Below are positions 1,721 through 9,534 of a stretch of DNA of 12,422 nucleotides, one piece after another. Within the stretch, counting starts at the first letter, position 1. Each line of letters opens with the position of its first letter. Under the pieces are notes generated by a model, which saw only the letters and a list, made by a program, of their open reading frames with translations, ran no database searches and was not told where the DNA came from. A program made the position numbers and the translations under genes. This stretch comes from a virus (taxonomy: Duplodnaviria; Heunggongvirae; Uroviricota; Caudoviricetes), in IMG/VR virus record IMGVR_UViG_2619619131_000008, positions 1 to 12,422 of that record. The stretch is one strand, 5' to 3'.

Positions 1721-1889
1721 AAACGGTTTGCGGGAAAAGGAGAGTTAAGTAGAATTGCAGCGGGTGCTTGAGGCTATCTGTCTCAGGCATGAACACCAAA
1801 AGGCAGATAGAGAAAAGCCCCAGTTAACATTACGCGTCCGGCAAGACGCTTAACATTAATCTGAGGCCATATCTATGCTCTACACACGT

Positions 1890-1918
1890 AGGTTAGCCTC
1901 TTACGTGCCGAAAGGCAA
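1890..1918 (-). promoter_or_regulatory. candidate Sok-like antisense promoter (minus strand: TTGCCT - 17 bp - TAACCT) directing transcription across the upstream in-frame ATG of the hok ORF
   Basis: Hexamers read from the reverse complement. Position and orientation match the canonical hok/sok layout. Not verified. Confidence 0.3.
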
Positions 1919-1931
1919 GGAGAAGCAGGCT

Positions 1932-2087
1932 ATGAAGCAGCAAAAGGCGATGCTAATCGCCCTGATCGTCATCTGTTTAACCGTCATTGTGACGGCACTG
2001 GTAACGAGGAAAGACCTCTGCGAGGTACGAATCCGAACCGGCCAGACGGAGGTCGCTGTCTTCACAGCTTACGAACCTGAGGAGTAA
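1932..2087 (+). CDS. hokD: Hok/Gef family type I toxin (51 aa), HokD/RelF-like
   Basis: Translation MKQQKAMLIALIVICLTVIVTALVTRKDLCEVRIRTGQTEVAVFTAYEPEE matches the Hok family signature (TM helix, conserved Cys, C-terminal periplasmic tail). AAGGAG at 1916-1921. An in-frame upstream ATG at 1875 could give a 70-aa form. Confidence 0.85.
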   Translation: MKQQKAMLIALIVICLTVIVTALVTRKDLCEVRIRTGQTEVAVFTAYEPEE

Positions 2088-3590: not shown

Positions 3591-3965
3591 ATGCGTATAG
3601 AGTTTGTTTTGCCTTACCCGCCGACGGTGAACACCTACTGGCGACGTCGTGGCAGCACATATTTTGTATCAAAAGCCGGTGAGCGTTATCGCCGGGCTGT
3701 GGCGCTTATTGTTCGCCAGCAGCGGCTGAAATTAAGCCTGTCCGGAAGGCTGGCGATAAAGATTATTGCCGCGCCACCGGATAAGCGCCGCCGTGACCTG
3801 GACAATATTCTGAAAGCGCCGCTGGATGCGCTGACGCATGCGGGGTTGCTAATGGACGATGAGCAGTTTGATGAAATCAATATCGTTCGTGCTCAGCCAG
3901 TATCTGGTGGACGTCTGGGGGTGAAGATTTACCCCATAATGCTTGCAGGGCAGGTCAAAAAATGA
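3591..3965 (+). CDS. rusA: RusA-family Holliday junction resolvase
   Basis: 124 aa. RusA-like motifs (YPPTVNTYW near the N-terminus, RRRDLDN acidic catalytic motif). AAGAGG RBS. Typical nin-region position just upstream of Q. Confidence 0.85.
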   Translation: MRIEFVLPYPPTVNTYWRRRGSTYFVSKAGERYRRAVALIVRQQRLKLSLSGRLAIKIIAAPPDKRRRDLDNILKAPLDALTHAGLLMDDEQFDEINIVRAQPVSGGRLGVKIYPIMLAGQVKK

Positions 3966-4783
3966 AACTGGAAGATTTACCGAAATACTACTCCCCAAAA
4001 TCCCCCGGCCTGACTGATGCATCGGCCTCAACGTCGAAAGATGCGCTGAGTATCACTGATGTGATGGCCGCGCAGGGCATGACACAGAATCGGGCTGAGA
4101 TGGGGTTTTCTGCGTTCCTTGGTAAAATGGGCATTAGTATGAATGACAGAGAGCGGGCAACAGAATTGCTGACAGAATATGCACTCAGTCGGTGTGATCG
4201 CGTGGCGGCGTTAAGAAAACTCCCGGCAGAAATAAAACCGGTAGTGATGCGCATTATGGCTTCGTACGCTTTTGAGGATTATGCCCGTAGCGCAGCGAGT
4301 AAAAAACAGTGCCCCTGCTGTCACGGAAAAAAATTTATTGAAAGCGAGGTTTTTACAAACAAGATCCAGTATCCGGATGGTAAGCCGCCGGTATGGGCAA
4401 AGTGTACGAAAGGTGTGTATCCGTCTTACTGGGAAGAATGGAAAAAAGTCAGGGAGGTGGTAAAAGTTGCCTGTCCGGAGTGTGGCGGAAAGGGTGAGGT
4501 TTCCACCGCCTGTAAGGATTGCCGTGGGCGTGGTGTCGCCATTCATCGTGAAGAGTCGGTAAAACGTGGTATGCCTGTTATCAGAGACTGCCAGCGTTGT
4601 GGTGGTCGTGGCTGTGAAAGACTACCATCAACGGAGGCATTTAATGCCATATGCAAAGTGACGAGTGCTATCACGCTTGATACGTGGAAAAAATCAGTGA
4701 AACGCTTTTACGATACGTTGGTGGTTCGGTTTGACATTGAAGAGGCATGGGCGGAGCGGCAGTTAAAGAGGGTAACGCGATAG
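3962..4783 (+). CDS. putative late-gene antiterminator (Q-like, QuuQ/YdfT-like) with four DnaJ-type CxxCxGxG zinc-finger repeats
   Basis: 273-aa ORF coupled to rusA (ATGA overlap). Sits immediately upstream of a lambda-like pR' promoter and tR' terminator. Contains CPCCHGKK, CPECGGKG, CKDCRGRG, CQRCGGRG. Assignment rests on synteny and recalled Qin organisation. Confidence 0.6.
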   Translation: MKLEDLPKYYSPKSPGLTDASASTSKDALSITDVMAAQGMTQNRAEMGFSAFLGKMGISMNDRERATELLTEYALSRCDRVAALRKLPAEIKPVVMRIMASYAFEDYARSAASKKQCPCCHGKKFIESEVFTNKIQYPDGKPPVWAKCTKGVYPSYWEEWKKVREVVKVACPECGGKGEVSTACKDCRGRGVAIHREESVKRGMPVIRDCQRCGGRGCERLPSTEAFNAICKVTSAITLDTWKKSVKRFYDTLVVRFDIEEAWAERQLKRVTR

Positions 4784-4788
4784 TGTTG

Positions 4789-4828
4789 TTGATTTTTCCC
4801 GAATCTGTGGTAAATTCGCTCTAACGAT
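4789..4828 (+). promoter_or_regulatory. pR'-like late promoter (-35 TTGATT, extended -10 TGgTAAATT) with downstream AACGAT pause-like element (putative Q engagement region)
   Basis: The -10 hexamer TAAATT and the downstream …AACGATGGG… closely resemble the lambda pR' region as recalled. Located 6 bp after the Q-like stop. Confidence 0.6.
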
Positions 4829-4865
4829 GGGCGTTTTATGCCTGACGTTAGAAGATTTTTTACAC

Positions 4866-4887
4866 CCCGCCGCCTGGCGGGTTTTTT
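4866..4887 (+). terminator. tR'-like intrinsic terminator (CCCGCC-GCCT-GGCGGG + TTTTTT)
   Basis: Perfect 6-bp GC stem followed by a T6 run about 45-65 nt downstream of the pR' start region; would yield a short 6S-like leader RNA. Confidence 0.7.
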
Positions 4888-6082: not shown

Positions 6083-6158
6083 GGCCCTTTAGCTCAGTGG
6101 TGAGAGCGAGCGACTCATAATCGCCAGGTCGCTGGTTCAAATCCAGCAAGGGCCACCA
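6083..6158 (+). tRNA. ileZ: tRNA-Ile2 (anticodon CAU, lysidine-type; ileZ/ileX-like), with encoded CCA
   Basis: Cloverleaf readable by eye: GGCCCTT acceptor, D arm GCTCAGTGGTGAGAGC, anticodon loop CTCATAA, T arm GGTTCAAATCC, 3' CCA. Very similar to recalled E. coli ileX. Anticodon alone would also fit Met. Confidence 0.85.
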
Positions 6159-6165
6159 TCACATA

Positions 6166-6239
6166 CCGCCATTAGCTCATCAGGAAAGAGCGCCAGCCTT
6201 CGAAGCTGGTTGCGCGGAGTTCGGATCCCCGAAGGCGGT
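6166..6239 (+). tRNA. argN: tRNA-Arg-like (anticodon read as UCG; argN-like), with non-canonical stem pairs
   Basis: Acceptor CCGCCAT/AAGGCGG (one A-A mismatch), D arm GCTC…GAGC, anticodon stem-loop CCAGC-CTTCGAA-GCTGG, T arm CGGAG-TTCGGAT-CCCCG (one A-C mismatch). 3' end is TCA rather than CCA. Confidence 0.55.
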
Positions 6240-6255
6240 TCATTATCTGTATCCT

Positions 6256-6332
6256 GCGTTGTTAGCTCAGCCGGACAGAGCAATTGCCTTCTAAGCAATC
6301 GGTCACTGGTTCGAATCCAGTACAACGCGCCA
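6256..6332 (+). tRNA. argO: tRNA-Arg (anticodon UCU; argO/argU-like), with encoded CCA
   Basis: Acceptor GCGTTGT/ACAACGC, D arm GCTCAGCCGGACAGAGC, anticodon loop CTTCTAA, T arm CTGGTTCGAATCCAG, discriminator G + CCA. Confidence 0.85.
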
Positions 6333-6346
6333 GACTTATTTTTCCC

Positions 6347-6370
6347 GGCTCGCTTTTGCGGGCCTTTTTT
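6347..6370 (+). terminator. rho-independent terminator after the tRNA cluster (GGCTCGC-TTTT-GCGGGCC + TTTTTT)
   Basis: 7-bp stem with one G-U pair followed by a T6 run. Confidence 0.55.
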
Positions 6371-6502
6371 GTATCCGCGCCACGCCCGGCGCATATCAAC
6401 CACAGAGCCTTTCGGGGGTGAGCTTACGGAGTGGTCAGTGTGACTTTCTCTGTGGGCAGATCGCTCCCGGGCGTTGGCTCACCCACCCAAAGGAACGTCA
6501 CG

Positions 6503-6934
6503 ATGTTTGGTATTTTTGGTAAAAAAGCCCGCCGAGCGGCAGTGGAAATTAAAAAGTTTGAGAAACGTGATCTGGCACAGGCGGTTATTAATGCTGCCTA
6601 TCTGGTGGCCTATGCAGATGGTGAATGTGAGGCTTCAGAGAAAGCGAAGATCGAGCAGGTCTTGCGTAACCAGCCTGCGTTGTCCGCGTTTACGTCAGAA
6701 ATTAATGCGATTAGCGCAACCATTATCGGTCAGCTGGATACGAACTTTAAAATTGGTCGTCGAGCGGCGTTACGTGAGATCGAGGATGTGAAACACGATA
6801 CGCGTGAAGCGGAAGACGTGCTGGATGTGGCGGTGGCCATTGCCGAAGCAGACGGCGAAATAGAGCCGGAAGAGCGCAAGGTGCTGGAAGAGATTGCCGG
6901 TGTTCTGGGCCTTCGTCTGGAGAATCATCTGTGA
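6503..6934 (+). CDS. TerB-like domain protein (tellurite-resistance TerB / DjlA-N-like fold), 143 aa
   Basis: ATG at 6503 with AAGGAA 7 nt upstream. Two TerB-type acidic motifs (AYADGECEASEKAKIEQVL and AEADGEIEPEERKVLEEIAGVLGL). The earlier GTG at 6431 lacks an RBS. Confidence 0.65.
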   Translation: MFGIFGKKARRAAVEIKKFEKRDLAQAVINAAYLVAYADGECEASEKAKIEQVLRNQPALSAFTSEINAISATIIGQLDTNFKIGRRAALREIEDVKHDTREAEDVLDVAVAIAEADGEIEPEERKVLEEIAGVLGLRLENHL

Positions 6935-6942
6935 CGGTAAAA

Positions 6943-7104
6943 ATGCGTCTGGCTGTGGTTGCGCTCCTGCTGTTTCTGGTAGTGATGGTGGTGATGGTGG
7001 ACTTCAGCAGCCGGATAATGTCAGTGCTGGCTGACGGTGTGCTGGTGGCGGGTGTGGTGGTTGTTGCTTTCCCGTTGCTGAAAAAGAAAGCATCAGGCGA
7101 TTAG
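6943..7104 (+). CDS. possible small hydrophobic membrane peptide (53 aa: MRLAVVALLLFLVVMVVMVDFSSRIMSVLADGVLVAGVVVVAFPLLKKKASGD)
   Basis: Absent from the ORF track (<60 aa). Starts 9 nt after the TerB-like stop. Two hydrophobic segments and a KKK tail. Weak RBS; contains a 9-bp tandem repeat GTGATGGTG x2. Confidence 0.35.
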   Translation: MRLAVVALLLFLVVMVVMVDFSSRIMSVLADGVLVAGVVVVAFPLLKKKASGD

Positions 7105-7344
7105 CAGGGTATCAGTTACCCGTTGAAATTTTTAAATACCTCACAATTCAGGCGGTTGACTGTTGTCTGGTTTGCGGGGAGTTTGTTAAAAGAAACTGGC
7201 ATGGTGAATCCCCCTGTGCGGAGGGGCAATCAGCAACTGGTGTTTTGTCACCGACCCTTATCCTTTCTGTGCGGGTTCAGGTGCTGATACTGAACTCACC
7301 GGGAGGCACCCGGCACCATGCAAAATTGTCTACACTACCACTGT

Positions 7345-7373
7345 AAAAAGCCCCTCTCCGGAGGGGCTTTTCT
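7345..7373 (+). terminator. strong intrinsic terminator (AGCCCCTC-TCCG-GAGGGGCT + TTTCT), A-run upstream makes it potentially bidirectional
   Basis: Perfect 8-bp GC-rich stem with tetraloop, flanked by AAAAA and TTTT. Confidence 0.65.
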
Positions 7374-7378
7374 ATGGG

Positions 7379-7407
7379 CAAAAAAAAGCCCGCAGTGAGT
7401 GGCGGGC
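7379..7407 (-). terminator. intrinsic terminator oriented for the minus strand (GCCCGC…GCGGGC preceded on + by A8, i.e. followed by U8 on minus-strand RNA)
   Basis: 6-bp GC stem with 8-nt loop. The poly-A on the + strand corresponds to poly-U on a leftward transcript. Confidence 0.45.
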
Positions 7408-7471
7408 GGGGCGCATGAATATACATCAGGTATTTTTATTATCGTGTTCTGATTTTTACCATCTGTGATAA

Positions 7472-7502
7472 GGCTGCGCAACTGCGCGGCCTTTTTCGTT
7501 TT
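7472..7502 (+). terminator. intrinsic terminator (GGCTGCGC-AACT-GCGCGGCC + TTTTTCGTTTT)
   Basis: 8-bp stem with one G-U pair followed by a T-rich run, about 90 bp upstream of the nanS-p-like start. Confidence 0.55.
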
Positions 7503-7590
7503 GCGGGCTGCGGTTCTCCTCTTTTGATTCTCCGTGTAGCCGGACCGTGGCCCGCAACTGTTGAGGAAAATCCCGGAAAGGGGAGGAATA

Positions 7591-9534
7591 ATGGCATTTA
7601 AACACTATGACGTGGTCAGGGCGGCGTCGCCGTCAGACCTTGCGGAGCGACTGACACAAAAACTGAAGGAAGGCTGGCAGCCGTTTGGCAGTCCTGTGGC
7701 TATCACGCCTTATACACTGATGCAGGCCATTGCCGCAGAGGGTGATGTGACCACGCCTGTGGTTGTGCCCGACACAGGGGCTGGTGGCTCTCCGGGAGTG
7801 GCTACCACTGAACCGGAGTATTACTACGTTATTCCCCTGGCCGGGCAGTCGAACGGTATGGCCTATGGTGAGGGGCTTCCTCTGCCGGAGACCTATGATC
7901 GCCCTGACTCCCGTATTAAGCAGCTGGCCCGTCGCAGCACTGTGACGCCGGGTGGTGATACCTGTGCATACAATGACGTTATTCCGGCAGACCACTGTCT
8001 GCATGATGTTCAGGACATGAGCGCACTTAACCATCCTCATGCAGACCTGAGTAAGGGCCAGTACGGGACTGTCGGTCAGGGGCTGCATATTGCCAAAAAA
8101 CTTCTGCCTTATATCCCGCAGAATGCCGGGATTCTTCTGGTGCCCTGTTGCCGTGGCGGGTCTGGTTTAACCGTGGGTAATGACGGCACGTTCAGCGAAA
8201 CGTCTGGCGCATCGGCAAATTCAGCCCGCTGGGGAGTGGGTAAACCGCTGTATCAGGATTTTCTCTTCCGTACAAAAGCGGCGCTGTCGAAGAACCCGAA
8301 AAACAGGCTTCTGGCCGTGGTATGGATGCAGGGGGAAAATGATCTTGCGGACGGCAGTCAGCAGCACAGCGGCCTGTTTACCACTATGGTGCAGCAGTTC
8401 AGGGCTGATATGGCTGCATATTCTGCACAGTGTGTTGGCGGAAGTGCTGGCTCGGTGCCGTGGATTTGTGGTGACACCACGTATTACTGGAAGAATCTTA
8501 ACGCCGATAAATATGAGGCGGTATATGGCGGTTACAAGGGCAGGGAAGCACAGAATATTTTCTTTGTACCGTTCCTGACGGATGAGAATGGACAGAGCAC
8601 GCCAACGAATGCTCCGGCGGAAGACCCGGATATTGTGGCTGTCGGGTATTACGGTGCAGCATCCCGAACCCAGGGCAGTTTTGTTTCGACACAGCGTGAC
8701 AGCCATTTCAGCTCATGGGCACGCAGGGGCGTCATTTCAGACCGTCTGGCCTCAGCTATTATGCTCCATGCAGGGCGCACGGCTGAATTGATGCGCGGGC
8801 AGACCGTGACACCACCGGATGAGAAGCCGTCACCTGATACACCATCAAAACCGTCCACGCCACCCGCAGACACCACGACGATGAGTACGCTATTTGCTTA
8901 CCGGGCATCTGAGTCTGAAGGACGGTTGACACCACAGGGTTGGGCTGCTGGAGGTGGCAAGGCTCAAATCGTGGATGATGCCGGAGCCAGCGGGGGTAAG
9001 GCAATGAAACTGACCAAGGAAACAGGAAGAGCCCCCTGGTACCTTGAGCATGATGCTGGTAATGGTGCGGACCTGCTGGGTAAAGGTGGTCTTGTCAGTT
9101 GTCGTTTTAAACTCGATGGCGCGCTTACGGCTAATCAGTACGCACTGGCGCTGTACTGGCCGGTTTCTTCATTGCCTCAGGGTGTCACACTGGAAGGTAA
9201 TGCCGGTAACAATCTGCTGGCGTCGTTTTACGTACAGAGCGATGCCACAGACCTCAACGTGATGTACCACAAGGGTAACGCTGACCAGAACACGAAGCTG
9301 GGGTCATTCGGCGCATTTAATAACGAATGGCATACGCTGGGCTTCCGTTTTGCCGGTAATAACAGTATTCAGGTGACGCCGGTGATTGATGGTCAGGATG
9401 GTGCACCGTTCATGCTGTCGCAGTCTCCGGTAGGTTCTTTTGCGGCAGACAAATTACGTGTAACGGATATCACAAAAGCGGCGACGTATACGGTGCTGAT
9501 TGAAAGTATAACAGTGGAAGTGAATAACCCGTAA
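7591..9534 (+). CDS. nanS: NanS-p-like prophage 9-O-acetyl sialic acid esterase (N-terminal DUF1737, SGNH/SASA esterase core with GQSN motif, C-terminal beta-rich domain)
   Basis: 647 aa from ATG 7591 (AAGGGGAGGA RBS). N-terminus MAFKHYDVVRAASPSDLAERL… is DUF1737-like. IPLAGQSNGMAYGEG carries the SGNH catalytic Ser block. Pro/Ser/Thr-rich linker (TPPDEKPSPDTPSKPSTPP). Same position as yjhS/nanS-p downstream of the toxin site in Stx phages. Confidence 0.8.
   Translation: MAFKHYDVVRAASPSDLAERLTQKLKEGWQPFGSPVAITPYTLMQAIAAEGDVTTPVVVPDTGAGGSPGVATTEPEYYYVIPLAGQSNGMAYGEGLPLPETYDRPDSRIKQLARRSTVTPGGDTCAYNDVIPADHCLHDVQDMSALNHPHADLSKGQYGTVGQGLHIAKKLLPYIPQNAGILLVPCCRGGSGLTVGNDGTFSETSGASANSARWGVGKPLYQDFLFRTKAALSKNPKNRLLAVVWMQGENDLADGSQQHSGLFTTMVQQFRADMAAYSAQCVGGSAGSVPWICGDTTYYWKNLNADKYEAVYGGYKGREAQNIFFVPFLTDENGQSTPTNAPAEDPDIVAVGYYGAASRTQGSFVSTQRDSHFSSWARRGVISDRLASAIMLHAGRTAELMRGQTVTPPDEKPSPDTPSKPSTPPADTTTMSTLFAYRASESEGRLTPQGWAAGGGKAQIVDDAGASGGKAMKLTKETGRAPWYLEHDAGNGADLLGKGGLVSCRFKLDGALTANQYALALYWPVSSLPQGVTLEGNAGNNLLASFYVQSDATDLNVMYHKGNADQNTKLGSFGAFNNEWHTLGFRFAGNNSIQVTPVIDGQDGAPFMLSQSPVGSFAADKLRVTDITKAATYTVLIESITVEVNNP

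Follow-up and report, generated by a model that had tools for sequence, protein, structure and literature searches.

A convergent sRNA dyad upstream of nanS-p in a lambdoid Escherichia coli prophage: an STnc100-family RNA and a predicted anti-sRNA variant

Lambdoid prophages carry convergent pairs of small RNA (sRNA) genes between a moron coding sequence and a conserved open reading frame (ORF), an arrangement whose RNAs have been crosslinked to Hfq, verified by Northern blot and found to be Hfq-dependent (Tree et al., 2014; PMC4104026). One member of such a pair, EcOnc27 (prophage Sp5), gives Northern bands of ~235/247 nt, of which the 247-nt one loses stability when Hfq is missing (PMC4104026); EcOnc05 (Sp4) is seen at ~222 nt (PMC4104026, Table S2). 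EcOnc27 is the sRNA103 of EDL933 and 86-24, overexpression of which increases the transcript levels of fimZ and espA, an effect that is probably indirect (PMC12711010; PMC5030294; PMC7873438). On the other strand are short anti-sRNAs such as AsxR, AgvB and EcOnc03, whose primary 5′ ends have been mapped by RACE downstream of a TTGCGC element, a spacer of 17-18 nt and TAAAAT (PMC4104026). AsxR acts on FnrS and haem use, and AgvB on GcvB and growth in bovine mucus; through such dyads, horizontally acquired phages can rewire core Hfq networks. Variation in the adjoining EcOnc27/STnc100 region has been statistically linked to haemolytic uraemic syndrome (HUS) outcome (PMC12711010). A review counts dyads in at least eight Sakai prophages and describes their rationale as unclear (PMC7873438), and a 2026 preprint relates the STnc100 family to PasD1 and PasD2 of enteropathogenic E. 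coli (EPEC) and reports its association with esterase genes.

The locus described here is a known prophage sRNA dyad of the kind published in 2014, located between a pR′ moron and nanS-p. Its plus-strand RNA is already represented in Rfam, and conceptually the window holds nothing new. The sole new element is predicted to be the minus-strand RNA, which appears from its sequence to be a rare, unannotated anti-sRNA variant scoring below the Rfam thresholds.

Setting of the region and its plus-strand sRNA

The window is the whole stretch of DNA that was analysed (12,422 nt), and forms the late-regulatory part of a lambdoid E. coli prophage. The region studied is the 456 bp between DUF3927 and nanS-p. 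A locus 99.8% identical to the window occurs in strain S1-CAM-01-A, where the gene order is RusA, antiterminator Q, an HTH protein, three tRNAs, a TerB-family protein, DUF3927, an unannotated gap, a SASA-family esterase (nanS-p), DUF1378, DUF826, holin and lysozyme. The flanking genes lie in the window as follows.

6083-6332: tRNAs
6431-6934: TerB
6931-7104: DUF3927
7591-7593, plus strand: ATG start codon of nanS-p (SASA esterase), as placed by RefSeq

The original prediction described the region as gene-free, which holds true for proteins. Five ORFs of 48-54 aa within it matched no Pfam family, and the RefSeq annotation of near-identical prophages contains at most a broken pseudo-ORF; small proteins were rejected on both grounds, and are also disfavoured by indels between homologues that are not multiples of three. 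The hairpins on which the prediction rested were all recovered by folding and a consensus scan, at or within 1-2 nt of the positions given for them. Their density is indeed high, with three terminator-like sites in 456 bp against ~0.46 expected from the shuffle mean (12.5 such sites per 12,422 bp), and the hairpin energies are well under those of shuffled sequence.

The proposal that these hairpins mark an sRNA locus was borne out on the plus strand, where cmscan returned a full-length match to the STnc100 family that spans model positions 1-206 of 206 (E = 5.8e-33) and, at 145.6 bits, is well above the gathering score of 47. The plus-strand RNA is a member of this family, to which EcOnc27/sRNA103 and EcOnc05 also belong, and has both the terminator of its own (T1) and the late-region position in a lambdoid prophage expected of STnc100. 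The features of the gene and its candidate promoter are listed below.

7132-7191, plus strand: sRNA promoter region, candidate elements only
7132-7137, plus strand: -10-like TTAAAT, candidate promoter element
7156-7161, plus strand: TTGACT, candidate promoter element
7163-7168, plus strand: TTGTCT, candidate promoter element
7186-7191, plus strand: -10-like TTAAAA, candidate promoter element
7170-7379, plus strand: STnc100-family sRNA (Rfam RF02076), full-length cmscan match
7199-7206 / 7314-7321, plus strand: closing helix of the sRNA
7210-7226, plus strand: P1 hairpin of the sRNA
7299-7313, plus strand: hairpin CCGGGAGGCACCCGG of the sRNA
7322-7344, plus strand: variable single-stranded linker of the sRNA
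7345-7373, plus strand: T1, intrinsic terminator of the sRNA, from the fold and the 3′ end of the Rfam model alignment

Covariation, which had been put forward as a check on the original prediction, was found in the core of this RNA. Using the invariant hairpin as a pattern, 120 IMG/VR loci were gathered, from which 68 non-redundant cores were aligned. RNAalifold gave 17 consensus pairs for these diverse homologues, eight of them with compensatory changes, and the window forms all of the pairs. The covariation is located in P1 and in the closing helix GCAUGGUG/CACCAUGC, which varies among homologues (GUGGUG/CACCAC, GCAGUG/CACUGC, GAUG/CAUC), while the CCGGG..CCCGG hairpin is invariant in the alignment because it served as the search pattern. 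The family structure is also reproduced by the centroid fold of the window sRNA. Across the 68 cores, variability within the family peaks in the linker that joins the closing helix to T1 (7322-7344). Its PasD counterpart contains the seed UGUGAG derived from RIL-seq; by this analogy the linker next to T1 is likely to be the seed of the plus-strand sRNA.

T1 consists of A5 (7345-7349), a stem GCCCCTC/GAGGGGC (7350-7356 / 7361-7367) and TTTTCT, and folds as RNA at -23.1 kcal/mol (z = -3.95), a value that none of 200 shuffles equalled. Given that it is flanked by both an A-run and a T-run, T1 has the form of a terminator on both strands, and could therefore also back up the minus-strand terminator T2 described below.

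Two candidate starts of the plus-strand RNA are compatible with the sequence. TTAAAA and its distance to the closing helix are kept in all of the relatives aligned, and a sigma-70 scan of the promoter region returned no strong promoter. The 5′ end of PasD2 in RNA-seq is the first G of the closing helix (the G of GCAUGGUG) and is preceded by TTGACT, a 17-nt spacer and TTAAAA, a geometry that the window matches. By analogy with PasD2, transcription would thus begin at 7199 and yield a ~178-nt RNA. Alternatively, the lengths seen on Northern blots for EcOnc05 (~222 nt) and EcOnc27 (~235/247 nt) would be compatible with a start ~50 nt earlier, around position 7145, which is preceded by a conserved TTAAAT/TGTAAT.

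Four prophages that differ in their morons have nearly the same sequence from ~7258 rightwards and diverge leftwards, which places a recombination junction inside the plus-strand sRNA gene. As the right-hand block is nearly identical among its carriers, conservation within it is uninformative on selection.

The predicted minus-strand RNA, the T3 hairpin and the nanS-p leader

A minus-strand terminator with no evident minus-strand gene was the puzzling element of the original prediction. This is explained by a predicted RNA of ~64 nt (7444 to 7381) which T2 ends, and which occupies the slot of AsxR, AgvB and EcOnc03. The elements to the right of T1 are as follows.

7380-7407, minus strand: T2, intrinsic terminator of the minus-strand RNA, GCCCGC-CACUCACU-GCGGGC then U8
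7381-7444, minus strand: predicted convergent short sRNA of the AsxR/AgvB/EcOnc03 anti-sRNA type, ~64 nt, 5′-CGAUAAUAAAAAUACCUGAUGUAUAUUCAUGCGCCCCGCCCGCCACUCACUGCGGGCUUUUUUU
7453-7481, minus strand: predicted promoter of the minus-strand RNA, aligned to the AsxR, AgvB and EcOnc03 promoters
7470-7502, plus strand: T3, conserved intrinsic terminator, AAGGCTGCGC-AACT-GCGCGGCCTT then TTTTTCGTTTT
7505-7553, plus strand: stem 4, long-range helix in the nanS-p leader, GGGCUGCGGUUC with GGACCGUGGCCC
7571-7593, plus strand: candidate small hairpin UCCC..GGGA and start codon, read from the sequence

Read along the minus strand, the order is the T3 hairpin with TTGCGC, a spacer, TAAAAA, CACGAUAA, an A-rich stretch, GUAUAUUCAUGC and T2. 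The putative promoter comprises a -35 element TTGCGC (7481-7476), which sits in the loop and stem of T3, a 17-nt spacer and a -10 element TAAAAA (7458-7453), without the final T of the TAAAAT in the known genes. This is followed by a 2-nt insertion and then by CACGAUAA, identical to Sp9 and Sp10. From its sequence the element would function as a promoter, and the loop of T3 would double as its -35. T2 has its stem at 7407-7402 / 7393-7388 and its U8 at 7387-7380 (fold -12.5 kcal/mol, z = -3.0); the sixth pair is C-G in place of the A-U of the AsxR/AgvB hairpin GCCCGA..UCGGGC, a compensatory change.

Slot and strand match those of AsxR (locus L001, 4630-4682, minus) and AgvB (L006, 1921-1982, minus), and the predicted RNA has in common with the class-I members the CACGAUAA start region and the GUAU..UCAUGC motif, with GUAUAUUCAUGC in the window against GUAUCUCAUGC in the known anti-sRNA genes. 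Its nearest relative is an IMG/VR variant (L041, CGAUUAUAAAAAUGUAUAUCUCAUGC), compared with which the window carries a 6-nt insertion. The RNA fails the Rfam AsxR model (RF02703), its 18.7 bits (7383-7444, minus) falling short of the gathering score of 63, and has no match to the AgvB model (RF02702) at E <= 10. The published conserved 3′ region of ~42 nt is only partly retained, as GUAU(A)U-UCAUGC and the GCCCG..CGGGC frame, and the 5′ region before the motif is ~20 nt long against the published variable 14-18 nt. Global identity, at 64-69% to class I and 63% to the unrelated class II, does not separate the classes and was dropped as a classifier; the class assignment thus rests on the shared motifs and the promoter. 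Of 5,426 complete E. coli genomes, 17 carry the variant, and none was found in phage records. Strains S1-CAM-01-A, NMBU-W12E19 and ST866 are carriers of this block. In strain ST866 the variant lies downstream of stx1c, and in two of the three other copies aligned a G-to-T change weakens the T2 stem.

Possible targets were sought among 21 E. coli sRNAs with RNAduplex and a search for helices. AgvB-GcvB was recovered as a control, ranking first (-23.7 kcal/mol), with AsxR-FnrS second. The window RNA formed no helix above noise with any of the 21 sRNAs; at noise level were a 7-bp helix with the OmrA/B seed, AU-rich helices of 9 bp with MicA and MicC, and an 11-bp helix with GcvB R1 that includes three G.U pairs and depends on the exact start site. 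The 8-bp pattern by which AsxR pairs with the FnrS terminator loop is absent from the window RNA, and its specificity should therefore differ.

T3, with its stem at 7470-7479 / 7484-7493 and TTTTTCGTTTT extending to 7502, folds at -19.2 kcal/mol (z = -4.3), and a U.G pair, read from the sequence, favours the plus strand. The hairpin is kept in all five aligned prophages and in ~20 IMG/VR sequence types, including where the convergent partner is a long class-II RNA (EcOnc08 type). Two variants (L113 and L108) retain it via a register shift or a shortened stem, and the independent sequence types are too few for covariation. At loci of another type (L034) T3 lies directly 3′ of the sRNA core, without a minus-strand gene. 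Furthermore, EPEC PasD2 (NC_011601 741157-741328) ends at the U-run of a T3-homologous hairpin, 86 nt from the esterase ATG, compared with a T3 spacing of ~90 nt in the window. Given its conservation, the L034-type arrangement and the PasD2 3′ end, T3 most plausibly represents a plus-strand terminator of the sRNA family that is ancestral or serves as a back-up. In the dyad loci a module of T1, minus-strand gene and promoter lies between core and T3, presumably as the derived arrangement, so that an ancestral PasD-type terminator would have been reused in an anti-sRNA promoter.

Downstream of T3, stem 4 pairs 7505-7516 with 7542-7553 over 12 bp (fold -21.6 kcal/mol, z = -2.5), with G.U pairs that make sense on the plus strand alone. 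The pairing holds in 90% of cells but in 21-51% in the controls with a slid partner. Two compensatory pairs occur between sequence types, although shuffle controls were not significant because of the few independent types; a genome-contig search for more diverse nanS-p leaders yielded seven loci only. The candidate UCCC..GGGA hairpin is weak (4 bp) and overlaps the GGAGG Shine-Dalgarno sequence (7582-7586), and an equivalent CCCGGCCGGG hairpin is present in other types.

Proposed function and rival explanations

The region very probably holds two convergent, independently terminated prophage sRNA genes, followed by a conserved terminator and a leader before nanS-p. In the lysogen each sRNA would probably be transcribed from a promoter of its own and owe its stability to Hfq. 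The plus-strand product is envisaged as an RNA of ~180-230 nt with a structured 5′ domain, a single-stranded linker and T1, which, by analogy with EcOnc27/sRNA103 and PasD, may act in the lysogen as an Hfq-binding, trans-acting base-pairing sRNA. The minus-strand RNA is most likely an Hfq binder that, in the manner of AsxR and AgvB, uses its variant 5′ end to titrate a host sRNA or lower its stability. In the lysogen, T1 and T3 would stop polymerases that start at the sRNA and moron promoters from reaching nanS-p and the lysis genes, and the DNA of T3 would in addition supply the -35 element of the minus-strand promoter. Read-through of terminators by Q-modified polymerase is established lambda biology; during lytic growth, Q-modified polymerase from pR′ would thus be expected to ignore T1 and T3.

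The hairpin cluster might instead serve mainly as an insulator, keeping moron transcripts (TerB/DUF3927, tRNAs) from running on into nanS-p and the lysis cassette and shielding the moron from transcription that enters from the right, with any RNAs as by-products. In favour of this, nanS-p and the lysis genes are directly preceded by two strong plus-strand terminators (T1 and T3), T1 is bidirectional in form, and T3 is retained in loci without the minus-strand gene. However, the sequence between the terminators is a structured RNA family of 206 positions with covariation rather than spacer, its homologues are abundant, Hfq-bound and Hfq-stabilised (PMC4104026; PMC8550237), and the minus-strand terminator is preceded by a conserved promoter and a short gene. 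A conserved closing helix and a variable seed linker would be unneeded for insulation, and the hairpin density can be explained without it, since the two genes account for one terminator each and T3 for a conserved ancestral or back-up one. Insulation as the main role is therefore improbable, and may be a side effect of T1 and T3. Far less probable still is the reading of T3 as a regulated nanS-p attenuator of leader-peptide or riboswitch-like type rather than a constitutive terminator. A 17-codon ORF (7416-7469) ends at the foot of T3, a weak match to the Rfam Leu_leader model covers 7414-7497 (24.3 bits against a gathering score of 50; E = 0.013), and stem 4 and the hairpin overlapping the Shine-Dalgarno sequence lie 3′ of T3. 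The ORF is not conserved, though, having five codons in Sp5 and three in Sp10, and a leader-peptide attenuator was rejected for this reason; its ATG is simply the reverse of the conserved anti-sRNA CAUG, no alternative anti-terminator pairing was found, and the T3-homologous hairpin is the plain 3′ end of PasD2.

The dyad reading is itself open to a narrower version, in which the plus-strand sRNA alone is functional and the minus-strand element is a decaying anti-sRNA remnant, unexpressed or without a target. This is a possibility of some substance, though not the favoured one. The element is below threshold on both Rfam anti-sRNA models, has the altered -10 TAAAAA, is rare (17/5,426 genomes), carries the stem-weakening SNP in two of three other aligned copies of T2, and gave no convincing target in the screen of 21 E. 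coli sRNAs. Against decay, the 17-nt promoter spacing, CGAU start, ARN-rich 5′ end, 6-bp GC stem and U8 are all intact, and T2 differs from the AsxR terminator by the compensatory change of A-U to C-G. Under the reading of two functional sRNA genes, a bolder extension can be offered tentatively, in which the minus-strand RNA is a functional undescribed sponge with a new 5′ specificity, carried on a mosaic block that also occurs downstream of stx1c, and retunes a host network other than those of FnrS and GcvB, while T3 and stem 4 together form a conserved leader that gates nanS-p in lysogens.

Relation to described prophage sRNAs

In O157 Sakai, STnc100 matches occur at the equivalent site in Sp5 (207.7 bits), Sp9 (175.2), Sp10 (145.8) and Sp4 (138), the Sp5 match beginning 75 nt after stx2B. 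Immediately 3′ of STnc100, on the opposite strand, lie AsxR in Sp5, EcOnc03 (the AgvB-model match) in Sp9 and AgvB in Sp10. The window aligns column by column to this Sakai dyad, promoter and T3 included, and such regions should be annotated as ncRNA genes rather than as empty or as pseudo-ORFs.

With EcOnc27 and EcOnc05 the plus-strand RNA has in common the closing helix, P1, the CCGGGAGGCACCCGG hairpin, the terminator and the position between a pR′ moron and nanS-p. Whereas EcOnc27 lies downstream of stx2B in Sp5, the upstream moron in the window is TerB/DUF3927, and the Sp5 RNA has other variable internal hairpins and another linker ahead of T1. Identity over the region is 68.6% to Sp5 and ~76-77% to Sp4 and Sp9. 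If the linker is the seed, the targets of the window RNA may differ from those of the Sp5 RNA.

PasD1 and PasD2 of EPEC E2348/69 (homologue EcOnc13) have in common with the window the structured core family and the site upstream of a SASA esterase, and the Rfam STnc100 model scores 41.4 bits on PasD2. The PasD seed/probe CCUUGUGAG (CCUUGUGAGUUCUGGCUGCGCAUG) has no match in the window with up to three mismatches, and the PasA and PasC probe sequences are likewise absent; identity with PasA, PasC or PasD was rejected accordingly. Unlike PasD, the window has its own T1 and a minus-strand gene between core and T3. The class-II RNAs (EcOnc08/21/42 and the sRNA of the E2348C_1409-1408 intergenic region) occupy the same slot, convergent with STnc100, and share with the window a similar GCCGCCCGC...GCGGGC U-run terminator. 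They are ~180-270 nt long and start near or inside the 5′ end of nanS-p, whereas the window lacks the class-II body and has the class-I promoter and CGAUAA start.

The closest counterparts of the predicted minus-strand RNA are AsxR, AgvB and EcOnc03, with which it has in common a convergent position abutting the terminator of an STnc100-family RNA, a -35 element in the T3 hairpin, a 5′ CGAU, an A-rich 5′ region of ARN type, the GUAU..UCAUGC motif and a GC hairpin with a U-run. It differs from them in its predicted length (~64 nt against 51-60 nt) and in the altered stem and loop of its terminator. The same dyad that adjoins toxin genes also accompanies non-toxin morons (TerB/DUF3927), and sequence variation in the anti-sRNA slot exceeds what Rfam covers.

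Sequence around the sRNA gene and T3

Alignment of the window block with other carrier prophages placed a mosaic junction within the sRNA gene, at about window position 7258. To the right of this position, identity was nearly 100% among four prophages with different morons (TerB/DUF3927, stx1c in strain ST866, and others), and the sequence to the left was divergent. Further downstream, a 17-codon ORF (MNIHQVFLLSCSDFYHL; window 7416-7469, plus strand) stops at the foot of the conserved terminator T3 and was considered as a leader peptide. This candidate was rejected because its ATG mirrors the conserved CAUG of the predicted anti-sRNA, and its length is not maintained among the Sakai prophages, the counterparts read from the alignment being 17 codons in Sp9, 5 in Sp5 and 3 in Sp10.

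STnc100-like units in other genomes

Some environmental phage contigs carry STnc100-like units in tandem (two to three copies). The repeat period is about 254 nt, matches amount to 81%, and every unit has its own terminator.

Tandem STnc100-like arrays in three environmental phage contigs
L025, 330-1054
L038, 1683-2407
L075, 4436-4994

PasD2 of E2348/69 (locus L134, 858-1029) scored 41.4 bits with the Rfam STnc100 model, slightly below the gathering score of 47; PasD-type members of this structural family are thus missed by automatic annotation. An 888-bp contig assigned to 'Xanthomonas pisi' (NZ_JPLE01000080.1; L133) matches the stx2B-nanS-p intergenic region of E. coli O157 Sp5 over the 492 bp that were compared, comprising 480 bp 5' of the nanS-p start and the first 12 bp of nanS-p. 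The contig most likely entered that assembly as a contaminant.

Other RNA elements of the window

Additional features in the window
1762-1937, plus strand, sok antitoxin RNA (Rfam RF01794, 117.1 bits)
3962-4783, Q antiterminator gene
4817-4881, plus strand, two terminator-like hairpins, candidate tR' (terminator scan)
6083-6364, plus strand, tRNA cluster and terminator GGCTCGCTTTTGCGGGCC (tRNA and terminator scans)

The sok match exceeds the gathering score of 59 and points to a toxin-antitoxin locus of the hok/sok type in the prophage early region. The hairpin pair lies immediately 3' of the Q gene and is a candidate tR', so that an StxS-type short transcript from pR' is a candidate as well. 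The three tRNAs, in the order CAT (Met/Ile2)-Arg(TCG)-Arg(TCT) and followed by the terminator, resemble the ileZ-argN-argO cluster of Stx phages. In Sakai Sp4 the same terminator is directly upstream of the sRNA.
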